DNA of 10,543 nt, from UHGV virus genome UHGV-0380619; one strand, given 5' to 3'. The stretch comes from a virus. The notes under the pieces were generated by a model. It searched no databases. It was not told where the DNA came from and was given only the letters and a program-made list of their open reading frames with translations. Positions 1,950-10,112 of the stretch are shown here, piece after piece. Both the position numbers and the translations under genes were made by a program. The number at the start of each line of letters is the position of its first letter. Position 1 is the first letter of the stretch.

Positions 1950-1955
1950 GCATGT

Positions 1956-1985
1956 AAAAAGGCCCCAACACATGTGCGTGGGGCC
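1956..1985 (-). terminator. Minus-strand intrinsic terminator upstream of the holin gene
   Basis: Hairpin GGCCCCA...TGGGGCC at 1961-1985. On the minus strand it is followed by UUUUU (plus-strand A run at 1956-1960). Confidence 0.5.
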
Positions 1986-2185
1986 TGAGAGTATACATGG
2001 TTTCAGTCAACTGCATGGTGCCGGGTGCCTCCCGGTGAATTCAGTACCAGCACCTGAATCCGCGATTATCCCATATACCTACTCGCTGATTGCCCATCCG
2101 CACAGGGGGATTCACCATGCCAGTTTCTTTTAACAAACTCCCCGCAAAACAGACAACTGTCAACCGTCTGAATTGTGAGACATTT

Positions 2186-2211
2186 AAAAAAAAGGCCCGC
2201 AAAAGCGAGCC
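2186..2211 (-). terminator. Minus-strand intrinsic terminator immediately 3' of the tRNA cluster
   Basis: On the minus strand: GGCUCGC-UUUU-GCGGGCC (7-bp stem with one G.U, 4-nt loop) followed by U8 (plus-strand A8 at 2186-2193). Confidence 0.45.
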
Positions 2212-2225
2212 GGGAAAAATAAGTC

Positions 2226-2302
2226 TGGCGCGTTGTACTGGATTCGAACCAGTGACCGATTGCTTAGAAGGCAATTGCTCTGTCCGGTTGAGCTAACAAC
2301 GC
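2226..2302 (-). tRNA. tRNA-Arg (anticodon UCU)
   Basis: Reverse complement folds as a cloverleaf: acceptor GCGTTGT/ACAACGC, anticodon stem ATTGC/GCAAT with loop CTTCTAA (anticodon TCT), T-arm ACTGG-TTCGAAT-CCAGT, 3' GCCA. Confidence 0.9.
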
Positions 2303-2315
2303 AGGGTACAGATAA

Positions 2316-2392
2316 TGGACCGCCATCGAGGACTCGAACCCCGCGCAACCAGCTTCGAAGGCTGGTGCTCTATCCTGATGAGCTAATGGCGG
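2316..2392 (-). tRNA. tRNA-Arg (anticodon UCG)
   Basis: Reverse complement: acceptor CCGCCAT/ATGGCGG, D-arm GCTC..GAGC, anticodon stem CCAGC/GCTGG with loop CTTCGAA (anticodon TCG), T-loop TTCGAGT, 3' TCCA. Confidence 0.85.
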
Positions 2393-2399
2393 TATGTGA

Positions 2400-2475
2400 T
2401 GGTGGCCCTTGCTGGATTTGAACCAGCGACCTGGCGATTATGAGTCGCTCGCTCTCACCACTGAGCTAAAGGGCC
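2400..2475 (-). tRNA. tRNA-Ile2 (anticodon CAU, lysidine type; alternatively tRNA-Met)
   Basis: Reverse complement GGCCCTTTAGCTCAGTGGTGAGAGCGAGCGACTCATAATCGCCAGGTCGCTGGTTCAAATCCAGCAAGGGCCACCA: anticodon loop CTCATAA, T-arm GCTGG-TTCAAAT-CCAGC. Closely resembles E. coli ileX as recalled. Confidence 0.85.
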
Positions 2476-2945: not shown

Positions 2946-3326
2946 TTACTTTTTTAGCAGCCAGTCGTCCATCTCCAGTCTTACCCCCAGCACAGACAAA
3001 CATCCGTCAATAAACCCTTCGGCTATCTGCATCTCAATTCGTATTGCTTTTTCGCTTTTCTTTCTCGTCCTGGCTATCTGTCTTTTTGATATTCGCAACA
3101 AATAATGAGCAATGAGAAGCGAATACTCCTCAGGTTTTTTCTGCTTCAGACGAGCAAGACAGTTTTCAATGATAAGTCCGTCATCATCGCAGCAGGCCGG
3201 ACGTGGTTTAGTGGCAGATGGTAAAAGTCCTTTGAATCCGGCAGCGATCGGAGAATAGTCCACCCCGGTGTTACCACTTGCAGCCCATGCCCCCCAGCGT
3301 TCAAGAACCATCTGAATATCACGCAT
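2946..3326 (-). CDS. Q: Late-gene antiterminator Q (phage 82/21 / QuuD-like family)
   Basis: ATG at 3326 (MRDIQMVLERWGAWAA...) preceded by GGAGAAAG; the track's upstream start at 3341 is TTG. Cys-rich motif ACCDDDGLIIENC. Position immediately upstream of the tR'-like terminator and late region. Confidence 0.8.
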   Translation of the reverse strand: MRDIQMVLERWGAWAASGNTGVDYSPIAAGFKGLLPSATKPRPACCDDDGLIIENCLARLKQKKPEEYSLLIAHYLLRISKRQIARTRKKSEKAIRIEMQIAEGFIDGCLSVLGVRLEMDDWLLKK

Positions 3327-6405: not shown

Positions 6406-7347
6406 TCACCCCCTGAATCCTTCCGGGATCTGGCTGTAGTCCACGTTGTCGTAACTGGCTTTGAAGTACGGGTCCTCACGTTTTTCTGTGTGCGTGCTGA
6501 CGGACGGCGATAAGCGCAGGGAAAGCTCATCCCATTTTTCCCGCAACTTCGACGGGCTGAGCACGTTACGGCACCAGAACGGATCACGGCTGACGCGGCT
6601 GTACATCTCGCAGATTTGTTTGTGAGTACGACCATCCTGCACACACATCAGGCGAATTTCGTTTGCCCATGCTGTCCAGTTCGGTTCTTTGGGACGAACC
6701 ACCTCGCCGTCACATTCGGCGGCCTGCTCGTACAGGGCGATGATTTTTTTCCAGAGCCACTGTGCGCAGGTCAAATCATCCTGCGTTCCCCACTGGCGCT
6801 TTTTAGGGCTGAATACAACCGCATCAGGATGGCGAGTTAAAAAATCCTGTTCAGCCGTCTGCGTGTCCGGTTGCAAAGCGTCCGGACGAGAAGGTTTTTT
6901 ATCTGACGGATCATGTTTTGATTTTACTGACGGATCCCCGCCAGATTCTGACGGGTGAAAACACGCTTTTTTGCCAGATTTCGACGCATCAAATTTTGAC
7001 GGGTCAGATTTTGATGCGTCAGATTTTGACGGGTCAGAATCTGACAGTTGAGAAAATGCCGCAGCCTGAAGCTTCGCAACGTTAAGCTGATAAACATTCG
7101 ACGCATTGCGGTTACCCTGGCGACGCGCCTTACGCGTTAACCAGCCTTCTGCTTCCAGCCGTGCGATAGCCGTTCTGACGGTACTCATCCCCGCGCCAAT
7201 CTGGCGGGCAATGGTTTCAATTGATGGCCAGCACACACCCTCGTCATTACTGAAATCAGCCAGACGGGCCATAATTGCCACACTGGATAATTTCATGCCT
7301 GACGCTGCGCAACCATCCCATACATAGCCGGTTAATTTGGTGCTCAC
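6406..7347 (-). CDS. Replication initiator (lambda O-like; HTH replisome-organiser N-domain with low-complexity linker)
   Basis: GTG start at 7347 preceded by a strong SD AAGGAGGTG with an in-frame TAA immediately upstream. N-terminal HTH region (LTGYVWDGCAASGMKLSSVAIMARLADFSNDEGVCWPSIETIARQ). Central pentapeptide repeats (SDPSK/SDASK) encoded by iterons. Confidence 0.8.
   Translation of the reverse strand: MSTKLTGYVWDGCAASGMKLSSVAIMARLADFSNDEGVCWPSIETIARQIGAGMSTVRTAIARLEAEGWLTRKARRQGNRNASNVYQLNVAKLQAAAFSQLSDSDPSKSDASKSDPSKFDASKSGKKACFHPSESGGDPSVKSKHDPSDKKPSRPDALQPDTQTAEQDFLTRHPDAVVFSPKKRQWGTQDDLTCAQWLWKKIIALYEQAAECDGEVVRPKEPNWTAWANEIRLMCVQDGRTHKQICEMYSRVSRDPFWCRNVLSPSKLREKWDELSLRLSPSVSTHTEKREDPYFKASYDNVDYSQIPEGFRG
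6901..7048. repeat. Origin-like iteron array inside the O-like gene (about 8 copies, consensus AGATTTTGACGGGTC, 15-bp period in the core)
   Basis: Repeated TCTGACGG(G/A)TC-type units at about 6903, 6926, 6947, 6980, 6996, 7011, 7026 and 7041. Each unit contains a short inverted repeat (TCTGAC..GTCAGA). An AT-richer stretch follows at 6891-6930. Confidence 0.7.
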
Positions 7348-8201
7348 TTACGCACCTCCTTATGCTTTTCGTTCAGTTCCGAGTCCACCAGCCCGGCAAC
7401 GAATACACCATCGTTGATGTAGTCGTAGAGCGATGAAGCCAGCGGAGACTGAACTGAAACCAGCATCGGATAAAGTTGTTCTAACCAAACGCGGTGAATT
7501 TCAGCCATGTAGAGGTAAACAACGTGGGCATTGTGCGCGACACATGAAGTATCAACCTTTCCGATCAGCGCCTGTTCCATCTGGTTAAAGGCATTGATGT
7601 ATGCCTCTTTGAACTGGGCAGCACGTTTACCCGTGAAACCCATAGCAAGAAACGCAAAGCCATCGCGGGTTATTTGATAGCAAGGTAGTTTGCGAGTACC
7701 GCCGTTGGGCTGGCGTACCAAAATTGATGTCTCCGCAAAATTGCGGGCACAAAACTCTGGAGAACAATCCAAAATGCGAATCTTTTTCAGAACATCGTCA
7801 TGACGTTTAGAGAAGAAGTCAGCAACAGCCAAAGAAGATGTAACAGCCTGACCATCAACGATGGCAATTTCAGGTTGAGAGAGGGTTGGGAGAGTAGTCA
7901 TAGTGACAGCCCCGGTAGTCAGTTTTTTAGAAAACTCACCACATGGGACGCCAATCACAGAGGTGGTGAGACGTACAGGGTTGGCGTTACCGGAGACTAC
8001 CGAACCCGGCCCGACCGAAGTCGGCCCTGTACGCCCCACCATAATTTGGGCGTAGCAATGCTCATGACACGAAAAAACCGCATGAGCGCGGTTATGCTCA
8101 GTAATCAATTTCAGGACGCCAATCCCGGCAACGGATTTTGCCGCTGCCAGAACAATATAACGCCCAGAATTATCAGAATCAATCATTACTGGTTTGCTCA
8201 T
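7344..8201 (-). CDS. Rha-family phage regulatory protein with an unassigned ~100-aa N-terminal extension
   Basis: Rha-like core from about residue 101 (MTTLPTLSQPEIAIVDGQAVTSSLAVADFFSKRHDDVLKKIRILD...). ATG at 8201 preceded by AAGGGA; alternative internal start ATG at 7901. The N-terminal 100 aa have coding-like codon usage. Stop overlaps the O-like GTG start. Confidence 0.65.
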   Translation of the reverse strand: MSKPVMIDSDNSGRYIVLAAAKSVAGIGVLKLITEHNRAHAVFSCHEHCYAQIMVGRTGPTSVGPGSVVSGNANPVRLTTSVIGVPCGEFSKKLTTGAVTMTTLPTLSQPEIAIVDGQAVTSSLAVADFFSKRHDDVLKKIRILDCSPEFCARNFAETSILVRQPNGGTRKLPCYQITRDGFAFLAMGFTGKRAAQFKEAYINAFNQMEQALIGKVDTSCVAHNAHVVYLYMAEIHRVWLEQLYPMLVSVQSPLASSLYDYINDGVFVAGLVDSELNEKHKEVRK

Positions 8202-8210
8202 GATCGTCCC

Positions 8211-8549
8211 TTATCTCCCTGAACTTTTGCCTGAAATGCTCAAGCGGGCTGAAGCATTCATGTTCATAGCCTTCACGGAGGTAGATAACCCGTTGTGTTT
8301 CCGGCTCCCAACGAATGACTCTGACGGGCACTCCGTAGTGATCTTTGAACCAGCGGTTAACTTGTCGCAAAGGACTGTCTCCTTCTGCCGGTTGAAATCC
8401 CCCACAGCCCACTCTGCAAAGCAGTGGGTTACAATTTCCCTGTCACCTGGTACATTCACTGCATAGCAATACTCCACCTTCGCTTTTCCACCCGGTACAG
8501 GAAGCGCAATCAGTTGCGAGCGACGGTAGTGTGTTGTTAAACTGTTCAT
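8211..8549 (-). CDS. Hypothetical protein (112 aa), translationally coupled to the upstream gene
   Basis: ATG at 8549 overlaps the upstream stop (ATGA) and is preceded by GGAGAAA. It overlaps in a different frame with a second protein-like ORF at 8179-8412, so the assignment is ambiguous. Confidence 0.4.
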
Positions 8550-9187
8550 GCGTTAGTTTCTCCACAACCAGAAGCAATCGACGCCACGACGCCCGGAGCT
8601 GCACACTCGCGGGCGTTACTCTTTTCCGGCGCACAAAAAACACGAAATAACAGTGTTAAATGCTCCTGCCACTTCGCCATTACTTGGTAGCTGTTCTCTT
8701 CGATTTGCTCACGCTCAGCTTGGTCAATAACTCCATCAGCAGTTGCCTTGCGTAAGTACTGGGAATGCTTGCCAATCCATTCTATTGACTCCATCAGCCG
8801 CTGATTAATGTCACCATTGTCAATGTCATCAATGACCACCAGCGGCACAAACACCCCATTACTACGACGGGCTATTGCATCCGTTACATGCCTGGTACCA
8901 CTGGCATCCTGTAAAACCATGGCCCACTCAAGTGGAAAAATTTGATCCCCACCGCTACGCAGTCTGTTATGCAATTGATCTTTTGCTGGGGTGATATCAT
9001 CAGATTTATACAAACCAAGAATTTCTGCTGCTTCCTCATAGCCATGAGGTAAATCAGCAATCGTTCTTCGTATTGCTGCCACCAGCCATGCTGGTTGCTT
9101 ATCAACTTTCCATTCAGGTTCTTTACCCACGTTTAAGCCCTCATATCTGTGGTTTCTGTAAATCGATTTATCCATTAGATTTTTCAT
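8546..9187 (-). CDS. CII-like / YdaT-like early regulatory protein (family uncertain)
   Basis: Long ORF immediately downstream of the Cro-like gene. Start not resolved: ATG at 9187 or 9175, both with weak SD; the track start at 9244 is GTG and would overlap cro extensively. Confidence 0.5.
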
Positions 9188-9368
9188 AAAGCTCAGGTTT
9201 AAATGGCAACCGTCCGCAAGTTCTATATGCAGCCTCTGCTGCACGTCCTTTTGGAATTAACTGGCCAGGACGGTTTCGCCACTGATAAACGGCTTCAGTT
9301 GTTATGCCGAAAAAAGCAGCAACTTTCTCAATGCTGCCGAAGTAGCTTTCGATATCGTCAGTCGTCAT
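9168..9368 (-). CDS. cro: Cro-like repressor (YdaS-type HTH)
   Basis: 66-aa ORF. ATG at 9368 preceded by GGAGGG. Motif VAAFFGITTEAVYQWRNRPGQLIPKGRAAEA resembles the YdaS/Cro family. Divergent from the CI gene across an operator-rich intergenic region. Confidence 0.75.
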   Translation of the reverse strand: MTTDDIESYFGSIEKVAAFFGITTEAVYQWRNRPGQLIPKGRAAEAAYRTCGRLPFKPELYEKSNG

Positions 9369-9465
9369 ATGCCCTCCAAACTAAGTTTTATTAGATGTTA
9401 ATTATCAATCTATCTTAGGTCAATAAAAACTAAGATTACTTAGTAATTAAAGAAATGGTGCTCCT
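9369..9465. promoter_or_regulatory. Immunity-region control region: three operator-like 18-bp sites plus candidate pR (and implied pRM)
   Basis: Sites AACTAAGTTTTATTAGAT (9379-9396), AACTAAGATTACTTAGTA (9428-9445) and a weaker reverse-orientation site ACCTAAGATAGATTGATA (9403-9420), with centres 24-25 bp apart. Candidate minus-strand pR: -35 TTGACC (9418-9423), 17-bp spacer, -10 TAACAT (9395-9400). Confidence 0.55.
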
Positions 9466-10092
9466 ATGGAAACGGTTGGTCAGCGTATAAAAGCTCTGAG
9501 AAGAGTTACCAGAACGTCCCAGAAAGAATTGGGTAAATTTTGTGGAGTAAGTGACGTTGCTGTGGGGTACTGGGAGAAAGACATCAATGTCCCTGGTGGG
9601 GAAGCACTTTCAAAATTAGCGAAGTTCTTCAATACGTCAATAGATTACATTCTTTATGGTGCGGAGTTTGAAGGCAAACTCGTCACAAACATGCGCAGAG
9701 TTCCTGTAATCTCGTGGGTTCAGGCTGGGCAGTTTACTGAGTGCAGGACAGCAGAAGTGTTTAGTGAAGTAGACAAGTGGGTAGATACATCATTAAAGAT
9801 TGGTGATAACTCATTTGCATTGGAGGTTAAAGGCGACTCCATGACTAACCCTAACGGCCTCCCAACAATACCAGAAGGCGCAACAGTGATTGTAGATCCT
9901 GATGCAGAACCCCGGCATGGAAAAATAGTCATCGCTAGACTTGATGGAACAAACGAAGCCACAGTAAAAAAATTAGTTATCGATGGCCCTCAAAAGTTTT
10001 TAGTGCCATTAAATCCCCGGTACCCCAACATCCCGATCAATGGTAATTGCCTCATCATTGGTGTAGTCAAAGGAGTTCAATACGAACTCTAG
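9466..10092 (+). CDS. cI: CI-type prophage repressor (HTH-XRE N-domain plus LexA-like S24 autopeptidase C-domain)
   Basis: 208-aa ORF. N-terminal HTH (QKELGKFCGVSDVAVGYWEKD). C-terminal S24 motifs: GDSM (Ser nucleophile) and VKKL (Lys), with a QAG candidate cleavage region. Confidence 0.9.
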   Translation: METVGQRIKALRRVTRTSQKELGKFCGVSDVAVGYWEKDINVPGGEALSKLAKFFNTSIDYILYGAEFEGKLVTNMRRVPVISWVQAGQFTECRTAEVFSEVDKWVDTSLKIGDNSFALEVKGDSMTNPNGLPTIPEGATVIVDPDAEPRHGKIVIARLDGTNEATVKKLVIDGPQKFLVPLNPRYPNIPINGNCLIIGVVKGVQYEL

Positions 10093-10112
10093 CCCCCCTT
10101 TTCTCTAACCAA

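Follow-up and report, generated by a model that had tools for sequence, protein, structure and literature searches.

The cro-ymfL genes of a lambdoid immunity region

The analysed stretch of virus genome UHGV-0380619 (the window, 10,543 nt, in whose numbering all positions are given) carries at 8546-9368 a cro-like gene followed by ymfL, whose 194-residue product belongs to a family of putative regulators that resemble the CII protein of phage 186. An earlier note, made from the sequence alone, had placed two genes of an early-right operon here, and both points are borne out: 8546-9368 is filled by two minus-strand open reading frames (ORFs), that of the 66-residue Cro-like protein (9168-9368) and one with its end at 8546, and they lie in a lambdoid immunity region with a divergent gene for a LexA/S24 CI-like repressor on the plus strand at 9466-10092. 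The 1.95-kb region from 8150 to 10100 is 100% identical to an Escherichia coli prophage, ECSC054, and 99% identical to phage mEp460_4F5, and the ECSC054/mEp460 records annotate a LexA family protein, a Cro/CI family regulator, a YmfL family putative regulatory protein, and then either DUF4222 or a 112-residue hypothetical protein. The region is the early rightward operon of the immunity region of a lambdoid (mEp460/e14-type) prophage, and Cro and YmfL are the ordinary, previously annotated lysis-lysogeny switch pair of such an E. coli prophage. YmfL has so far been a 'putative regulatory protein' without assigned sites or targets, and what is new here are exact predictions of binding sites, promoters and antisense RNAs that make a lysogeny-establishment circuit testable.

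The divergent gene encodes an immunity repressor of the self-cleaving LexA type, with Peptidase_S24 (1.6e-27) and HTH_3 (3.5e-09) domains in Pfam; PGAP names it a LexA family protein, and its C-terminal domain is 42% identical to that of e14 YmfK. A promoter scan and a repeat search of the cI-cro intergenic control region (9369-9465) located a pR-like promoter for cro on the minus strand (TTGACC at 9423-9418, a 17-bp spacer and TAACAT at 9400-9395), and dyads of the CTAAG/CTTAG type, for instance CTAAGATTACTTAG at 9430-9443, are repeated between cI and cro and would serve as operators.

The product of the cro-like gene (minus strand) is a small single-domain helix-turn-helix (HTH) protein of the P22_Cro family, distantly related to YdaS and DicC. 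It scores 42.8 bits with P22_Cro (PF14549, cutoff 30.2) over residues 3-61 of 66, matches phrog_409 and phrog_35, and is named a Cro/CI family regulator by PGAP (WP_000205494.1). The earlier note had described the gene as Cro-like and of the YdaS type; the first description stands and the second does not, with 19.5 bits for YdaS (PF15943, YdaS_toxin) against a cutoff of 30, and no alignment to Rac YdaS by BLASTP. The score with NCBIfam DicC, 32.6 bits, is likewise far under its cutoff of 130. Rac YdaS, run as a control, scores 107.7 bits with YdaS_toxin and also 36.8 with P22_Cro, which means that the two families are related; by these sequence comparisons the Cro-like protein is a superfamily-level relative of YdaS and no more.

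Four in-frame starts are available to ymfL, namely GTG 9244 (232 residues), ATG 9187, ATG 9175 and GTG 9130 (194 residues), and a Shine-Dalgarno sequence (GAGGG, with a 7-nt spacer) is found at GTG 9130 only. A 585-nt ymfL is annotated by both PGAP and the mEp460 record, YmfL homologues cluster at 176-195 residues, and MG(N/K)EPxWK opens all the aligned sequences, which come from many genera. For comparison, 73 loci were recovered, one genome per species, about 70 of them usable for the ymfL start. In approximately 66 of these 70, GTG occupies the aligned position, with AAGGGG or AGGAG before it, and several loci (L008, L013, L015, L019, L054, L064 and L075) have an in-frame stop 1-3 codons upstream of the GTG. 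The Shine-Dalgarno sequence, the annotations and the conserved start of the homologues therefore point to a gene of 8546-9130 on the minus strand, separated from cro by 37 nt (9131-9167). GTG 9244, ATG 9187 and ATG 9175 were rejected as starts; none of the three has a Shine-Dalgarno sequence, and in many of the homologous loci stop codons interrupt the frame 1-14 codons further upstream. The start that the earlier note had left unresolved is thus assigned, and the overlap with the 3' end of cro that it had proposed, which exists only in the longest ORF or with ATG 9187 or ATG 9175, is an artefact of extending the ORF to its maximum.

Family membership of YmfL is clear from NCBIfam NF041471 (180.5 bits, equivalog cutoff 90) and from a full-length identity of 56% to e14 YmfL. 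Furthermore, the protein matches phrog_101, 'CII-like transcriptional activator', at 5e-62, and Pfam Phage_CP76 (PF06892) marginally, with 28.2-28.8 bits (cutoff 26), a match that is precomputed for about 118 among the 120 YmfL homologues listed; 186 CII itself, as a control, scores 163.6 bits. An AlphaFold2 model built with 30 homologues has a predicted HTH at about residues 30-58, followed by two long helices, and residues 168-194 form a tail predicted to be disordered. When the model was searched against the PDB with Foldseek, the six best matches were all chains of 6VLI/6VPE, the 'Regulatory protein CII' of phage 186, at a probability of 0.99-1.0, with target-normalised TM-scores of 0.40-0.69 across the six and 0.62-0.69 for the three best, values that indicate the same fold; the next matches were ferritins, with E of at least 0.7. 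From model and profiles, YmfL is a distant homologue of 186 CII that shares its fold. Matches to Bcl-w in a PDB sequence search with YmfL were judged spurious. Where the two predicted HTH helices meet, the turn is longer by eight residues, YKSDDITP (41-48; window 9085-9108), than in e14 YmfL and roughly half the family, and AlphaFold2 gives this insertion the shape of a small beta-hairpin.

The second ORF had been called CII/YdaT-like in the earlier note, and only the former half of this label holds. Against PF06254 (YdaT_toxin), YmfL gives no match at E <= 1, with Rac YdaT scoring 44.7 bits as a control; BLASTP against YdaT returned nothing, hhalign gave a probability of 0.5%, and YdaT structures are absent among the PDB fold matches of the model. 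The Pfam comparisons that the note had proposed thus leave YdaS below threshold, YdaT without a match, and the CP76 CII family above its cutoff.

Paired dyads, predicted leftward promoters and an antisense RNA

An alignment of the cro-ymfL junction revealed the dyad AACCACAG-N14-ACGTGGGT (minus-strand reading, 9125-9154), hereafter site 1, which spans the Shine-Dalgarno sequence and GTG start codon of ymfL and is a predicted YmfL binding site. In 64 of 69 loci an unchanging ACCACAG precedes the GTG by exactly 23 nt, whichever of the diverse cro genes lies upstream, and the form seen across the family, AACCACAG-N14-(C/A)CGTGGGT, is an imperfect dyad whose CCAC and GTGG cores are 22 bp apart. 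Adjacent to it is P1 (9153-9188, plus strand), a predicted leftward promoter directed towards cI and a candidate analogue of pRE/pE, with a -35-like TTTCTG at 9153-9158, a 17-bp spacer, a -10 TAGATT at 9176-9181 and a start at about 9188, placed antisense to cro and sense for cI. Of 63 non-redundant junctions, 49 have an antisense TAnnnT 17 bp downstream of a TTAnnn abutting the dyad, where other positions average 0.54, and TAnnnT at the P1 offset is present in 29 of 33 clusters formed at 60% identity. The TA of this -10 element belongs to a stop codon in some Cro types and, in another frame, to Pro-Asn or Ser-Asn codons elsewhere, and because it is kept across different Cro frames the constraint must act at the DNA level. 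A -10 element directly beside the dyad was set aside as the weaker candidate (x = -1, 25/63 loci, against 49/63 at site 1 and 53/53 at site 2 for x = -23).

No conserved terminator was found between P1 and cI across the loci, the hairpin at 9228-9243 being specific to the window sequence. Terminator-like hairpins on the leftward strand of antisense cro are seen in the window (TGCAGCCTCTGCTGCA then CGTCCTTTT) and in e14 (L003; AGCCAGCACAAAACTGGCT then TTTTTATAG), in the latter some 61 nt past the predicted start of P1. Their position varies across the loci, but in these particular prophages they could keep part of the P1 transcripts from reaching cI. As for the junction itself, three loci (L039, L047 and L074, with ymfL starting at about 2986-3001 of the locus) have no ACCACAG at the start, use ATG, and carry a GC-rich, hairpin-containing insert upstream of it. 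About 460 bp upstream of the ymfL start, L047 and L074 have an intact sequence of the site 1 type (CCACAG...GGGGTTAACCGTGG), which suggests that an insertion split the original junction.

A pattern search across the loci located a second dyad, site 2, within the core of ymfM (8211-8549, minus strand), the gene downstream of ymfL, whose ATG overlaps the ymfL stop codon by 4 nt (ATGA). Its 112-residue product is a homologue of the SOS-inducible cell-division inhibitor of e14, with 96% identity to e14 YmfM and a match to phrog_1170 at 1e-64. Site 2 reads ACCCACTG-N14-CTGTGGGG on the minus strand (8400-8429); CCACNG-N13-15-CNGTGG recurs at +661 to +678 from the ymfL start, with 54 loci having a looser pattern, and the spacing is that of site 1, with GTG at +23. 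A consensus form common to both sites is (A)ACCACAG-N14-nnGTGGG, and in 20 kb of the closest prophage CCAC-N18-GTGG occurs at sites 1 and 2 only, no further copies being found in this context, for instance near int, where an analogue of pI might lie. Site 2 encodes the YmfM core motif NHS...VG, and its synonymous codons are frozen: Asn is AAC, His is CAC and Val is GTG in 45 of 45 cases each, while Ser is AGY and never TCN, and replacements of this Ser by Arg retain the AG. No such restriction is seen in the Cys, Arg, Ala, Ile, Gly, Val and Tyr codons around them. P2 (8428-8463, plus strand) is the corresponding predicted leftward promoter in ymfM, with GTTACA at 8428-8433, a 17-bp spacer, TACATT at 8451-8456 and a CAT start at 8463. 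All 53 non-redundant loci have an antisense TAnnnT at the P1 offset, with a conserved CAT 7 nt downstream, and both the -10 element and the CAT are kept through the use of rare codons (xTA, AGA, TAT).

The ymfL-ymfM junction harbours an OOP-like antisense RNA unit (8514-8628, plus strand), composed of a promoter, P3 (TTGCGA at 8514-8519, an 18-bp spacer and TAAACT at 8538-8543), an RNA beginning at about 8547, and a hairpin at 8588-8617 followed by UACUCUUUUCC. The RNA is antisense to the ribosome-binding site and start of ymfM and to the 3' end of ymfL, and the antisense P3 pattern TTGnnn-N18-TAnnnT is present in 46 of 46 loci. The terminator is an 11-bp GC-rich hairpin with a folding energy of -27 kcal/mol, whose stem has compensatory changes in 7 of 10 pairs and few broken pairs over 50 loci; the terminator scanner did not flag it, the stem being bulged. 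In K-12, Shinhara et al. described ECS003, a 116-nt read cluster with a Northern band of about 70 nt, opposite ymfL and ymfM, and the most abundant among cis-antisense candidates with predicted sigma-70 promoters. The published ECS003 sequence maps to NC_000913.3 1203709-1203824 on the minus strand, beginning at the complement of the ymfM ATG and extending into the 3' end of ymfL, and the window is identical to it over the first 70 nt and at 94 of 116 positions overall. Rfam holds no family matching an ECS003-type antisense RNA, and there is no sequence homology to lambda oop. The unit nevertheless has the attributes of the OOP type, namely a short leftward transcript that begins immediately past a CII-type gene, overlaps its 3' end and stops at an intrinsic terminator, and ECS003, an orphan K-12 antisense RNA until now, parallels OOP in position and form and may be its analogue.

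The DNA of the terminator hairpin also codes for the YmfL tail, a segment with strong conservation despite its predicted disorder. This suggests that an RNA-level constraint contributes to the conservation of the tail, which may reflect the antisense terminator on the other strand instead of a degron. The tail (approximately residues 165-194; window 8546-8640) varies among homologues as if it were a set of frameshifted readings of similar DNA, for example in the variant ...DAGELQLPASRRV..., which would fit a hairpin conserved as DNA or RNA and not as a peptide.

The 3' half of ymfM also contains, in another frame, a gene for a DUF4222 protein (8179-8370, minus strand; PF13973, 6.9e-18). Over 8179-8549, ymfM and DUF4222 (63-77 residues across loci) therefore overlap in different frames, and YmfM itself has a conserved core of about 58 residues that occurs in a short form (58-67 residues) and in a long form (approximately 108-114 residues) that reads through DUF4222. 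In the DNA shared by both, the DUF4222 frame is 60-80% conserved versus about 35% for the YmfM frame. PGAP annotates DUF4222 and not ymfM in ECSC054, the K-12 annotation has ymfM and not DUF4222, and the published ymfM clone would carry most of the DUF4222 ORF. The overlap of ymfM with regulatory DNA and with DUF4222 thus matters for reading ymfM cloning and knockout experiments.

A candidate lysogeny circuit and its rivals

Taken together, YmfL is most likely the CII-type lysogeny-establishment activator of this phage group, by analogy with 186 CII, which is an activator (PMC7708051), and the explanation as a whole is given a probability of about 0.62. Under this scheme Cro would be made first from pR, followed by YmfL and then YmfM. 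We infer that YmfL, probably a tetramer like 186 CII, binds both dyads, in which some two helical turns separate the CCAC and GTGG cores, and that from sites 1 and 2, with dyad centres near -48.5, it activates P1 and P2, two weak leftward promoters whose activity would depend on it. The transcript from P1 would run antisense through cro, carry the gene of the CI-like repressor in sense and so establish lysogeny, and that from P2, a paQ-like promoter, would be antisense to the 5' region of ymfM. A constitutive OOP-like RNA from P3, ending inside the 3' end of ymfL, would probably damp expression of both ymfL and ymfM. Furthermore, the disordered C-terminal tail of YmfL may recruit a protease as a degron, as in 186 CII, whose instability is mediated by its C-terminal region (PMC7708051). 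There is a precedent for a protein at the CII position that activates a promoter between a cro-like and a cII-like gene, as YdaT activates PRE between ydaS and ydaT (PMC8630535).

Two observations favour YmfL as the protein that would bind the dyads. CI and Cro vary among the loci while the dyad is constant, which excludes both of them. Furthermore, the DNA motif tracks the sequence of the recognition helix in distant homologues. NRLR, in the predicted recognition helix, is invariant across the YmfL family; in Yersinia phage YeP1 a homologue with 29% identity has NRVR, and there ACCAC stands 23 nt before the GTG start and TAGTCT, on the antisense strand, at the offset of the -10 element. Where the helix reads NNLY, in a homologue from a Klebsiella phage, the gene starts with ATG and the DNA motif is missing, and in 186 CII the helix motif is RNKLN and the half-site ATGTTTG.

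A number of results weigh against this explanation. On the protein side, the PF06892 match is only 2.8 bits over the cutoff and covers profile positions 47-135 of 146, the AlphaFold2 model is of moderate quality (pLDDT 71, pTM 0.52), a PDB profile search with YmfL gave no match, and hhalign of the YmfL profile with 186 CII was weak (E 0.08, probability 0.7%), and for that reason the link to 186 rests on Pfam and the fold search. As for the DNA, conservation of the right half of site 1 is confounded by the start codon, a Gly codon and the Shine-Dalgarno spacing, and site 2 of the window has T at the A5 position that is at least 97% conserved (plus-strand A at 8423). The left half of site 2 is ACCCACTG in the window, ACCCACAG in K-12 and AACCACAG in other loci; the A5 change turns a YmfM Ser into Cys, and may weaken site 2 in this prophage lineage. 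P1, P2 and P3 all fall under the consensus threshold of the promoter scanner (the 9-of-12 rule), and the predicted dyad centre at -48.5 lies about one helical turn further from the start than the estimate of about -37.5 for 186 pE (from TACAAT). Transcripts from P2 would run into the OOP-like terminator after about 160 nt, and a weak, non-conserved terminator-like hairpin (9228-9243, plus strand) lies between P1 and cI. Finally, the study in which ymfL was overexpressed scored cell length only, and not regulation.

The first alternative, which we regard as unlikely, is that YmfL binds the dyads as a repressor or roadblock, shutting down its own transcription or translation at site 1 and halting, at site 2, the rightward transcription of ymfM, DUF4222 and the replication genes, with the adjacent -10-like elements being constitutive or otherwise regulated antisense promoters. 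This would suit the overlap of site 1 with the Shine-Dalgarno sequence and start of ymfL, the location of site 2 within a transcribed operon, and the activity of the neighbouring P3 without YmfL in the repressed K-12 lysogen. However, the distance from dyad to -10 element is fixed and the same at both sites, and the -35 is weak, as is usual in promoters that depend on an activator, and 186 CII, the structural relative of YmfL, activates even though its site also covers its own start codon (PMC7708051).

A second alternative would remove YmfL from the dyads altogether, its role lying elsewhere: ACCACAG...GTGGG could be a site for another factor (a host protein, or YmfM), an RNA-level helix, or a boundary kept by recombination. 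CCAC can indeed pair with GUGG at the start codon, and similarity to other loci stops immediately upstream of the site 1 motif. Yet a 4-bp helix closing a loop of 16-18 nt would be unstable, and an mRNA hairpin of this kind was rejected as too weak at the start of ymfL and inapplicable at site 2, which has no start codon to occlude. Nor does a boundary fit site 2, which lies in conserved coding DNA with no module boundary and with its synonymous positions frozen, and the tracking of the motif with the YmfL recognition helix in distant homologues is a further argument for YmfL itself, so that this reading is judged quite improbable.

Least tenable, at a very small chance, is a toxin-antitoxin-like pair of the YdaS/YdaT type, in which the Cro-like protein would neutralise a toxin encoded by the second ORF, for although the first gene has a weak sub-threshold YdaS match (19.5 bits) and Pfam still uses the names YdaS_toxin and YdaT_toxin, the second protein has no similarity to YdaT by profile, BLAST, hhalign or fold in searches whose positive controls worked, and overexpression of e14 ymfL caused no filamentation. 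Jurenas et al. showed that YdaS and YdaT are Cro and CII analogues and not a toxin-antitoxin pair (PMC8630535), which refutes the module even for the true YdaS and YdaT. In the work of Ansari et al., e14 ymfL and ymfM were cloned separately, and ymfM alone produced filamentation, whereas cells induced for ymfL were of normal length (bioRxiv 10.1101/2020.11.19.390815); an earlier library screen had also found the ymfL/ymfM region. The growth-affecting, toxic product of the operon is that of its third gene, ymfM, outside the pair at 8546-9368, and because YmfL lacks YdaT similarity, true YdaS/YdaT are Cro/CII analogues and, in published work, e14 ymfL does not cause filamentation, the toxin-antitoxin reading offered in the earlier note is unsupported.

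Within the activator explanation, the more specific proposal of a previously undescribed YmfL-type CII circuit written into coding DNA, with two dyads each driving a leftward promoter and an OOP-like RNA whose terminator lies in the YmfL tail, is one to which we give slightly less than an even chance. If true, much of the conservation of the YmfL tail and of the YmfM N-terminus would be a DNA- or RNA-level constraint, YmfL would switch off a division inhibitor while switching on a repressor, and the near-universal GTG start of the YmfL family would serve as part of a half-site. Proteins of the YmfL type are widespread among enterobacterial lambdoid prophages, for example the Stx2-converting phages, SfV/SfII, ST64B and e14, and they hold the cII position in many prophages of medical relevance, Stx2-converting and Shigella serotype-converting phages among them.

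Elsewhere in the window, the minus strand has Rfam matches to isrK (8071-8147, 68.6 bits) and C4 antisense RNA (7959-8046, 82.3 bits), both within the 5' third of a 285-residue ORF (7344-8201) that is annotated as a 'Rha family phage regulatory protein' and whose Pfam Phage_ASH match is located in the same third. The segment 7959-8147 looks like an isrK/C4-controlled antirepressor cassette, and the annotation of ORF 7344-8201, possibly together with that of the Ash 'domain', may reach too far, into RNA genes. Further away, at 1950-2475 (minus strand), the STnc100 small RNA (133 bits) and three tRNA genes (Arg-tct, Arg-tcg and Met-cat) are located between the Q-like antiterminator gene and the lysis genes, as is typical for lambdoid phages of the Stx type in their late region.

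Comparison with phage 186, e14, lambda and Rac

The CII of phage 186 is in one Pfam family with YmfL, marginally so for YmfL, and is the only significant fold match of YmfL; both have an N-terminal HTH, long helices and an unstructured C-terminal region, and are encoded directly after the gene for a Cro analogue. The annotated CII site of 186, ATGTTTG-N14-CAAACAT, covers the cII start codon, and the dyads of both phages have half-sites of about 7-8 bp that are 14 bp apart. In 186, pE runs leftward beside the dyad, as predicted for P1, and the next gene is a division inhibitor in both cases (fil in 186, ymfM here). The two systems differ in that the proteins are only about 16-20% identical, the half-site is CCAC/GTGG here and ATGTTTG in 186, and the dyad of the window lies upstream of and across the start, whereas that of 186 extends from the start codon into the gene. 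Moreover, there are two sites here and one known in 186, and the context is lambdoid, with a P22-type Cro and a LexA-type CI, rather than P2-like, with Apl and 186 CI.

The ymfK-ymfT-ymfL-ymfM genes of e14 have the same order and orientation as those of the window, with YmfL 56% and YmfM 96% identical, and e14, in which ECS003 was detected, also has the two dyads, P2, P3 and the antisense terminator. In contrast, the Cro of the window has no detectable similarity to YmfT, the CI proteins are alike in the S24 domain only, and YmfL of the window has the eight-residue insertion in its HTH turn. Furthermore, the e14 prophage is defective, whereas in this region the window matches a phage record, mEp460_4F5, at 99% identity.

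In lambda, cro is followed by CII, and the activator-dependent leftward promoter pRE lies at the cro/cII junction, overlapping the 5' end of cII; paQ is a second activator-dependent antisense promoter, in a downstream gene, and the constitutive OOP RNA covers the 3' end of cII. The positional logic of Cro, CII, pRE, paQ and OOP would thus be mirrored by cro, YmfL, P1, P2 and P3. Unlike this logic, the parts differ: YmfL has no sequence or fold similarity to lambda CII, which recognises the direct repeats TTGC-N6-TTGC, and the 37-nt cro-ymfL spacer contains no nutR or tR1.

YmfL and the YdaT of Rac and CP-933P are unrelated by profile and fold search, and the Cro-like protein of the window falls under the YdaS threshold. 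The likeness between the two systems is nonetheless positional and probably functional, since each has a Cro-like and a CII-like protein, with PRE, or in the window its predicted counterpart, between their genes, and the Cro-like proteins belong to one HTH superfamily. YmfL stands at the position that is held by CII in lambda and by YdaT in Rac.

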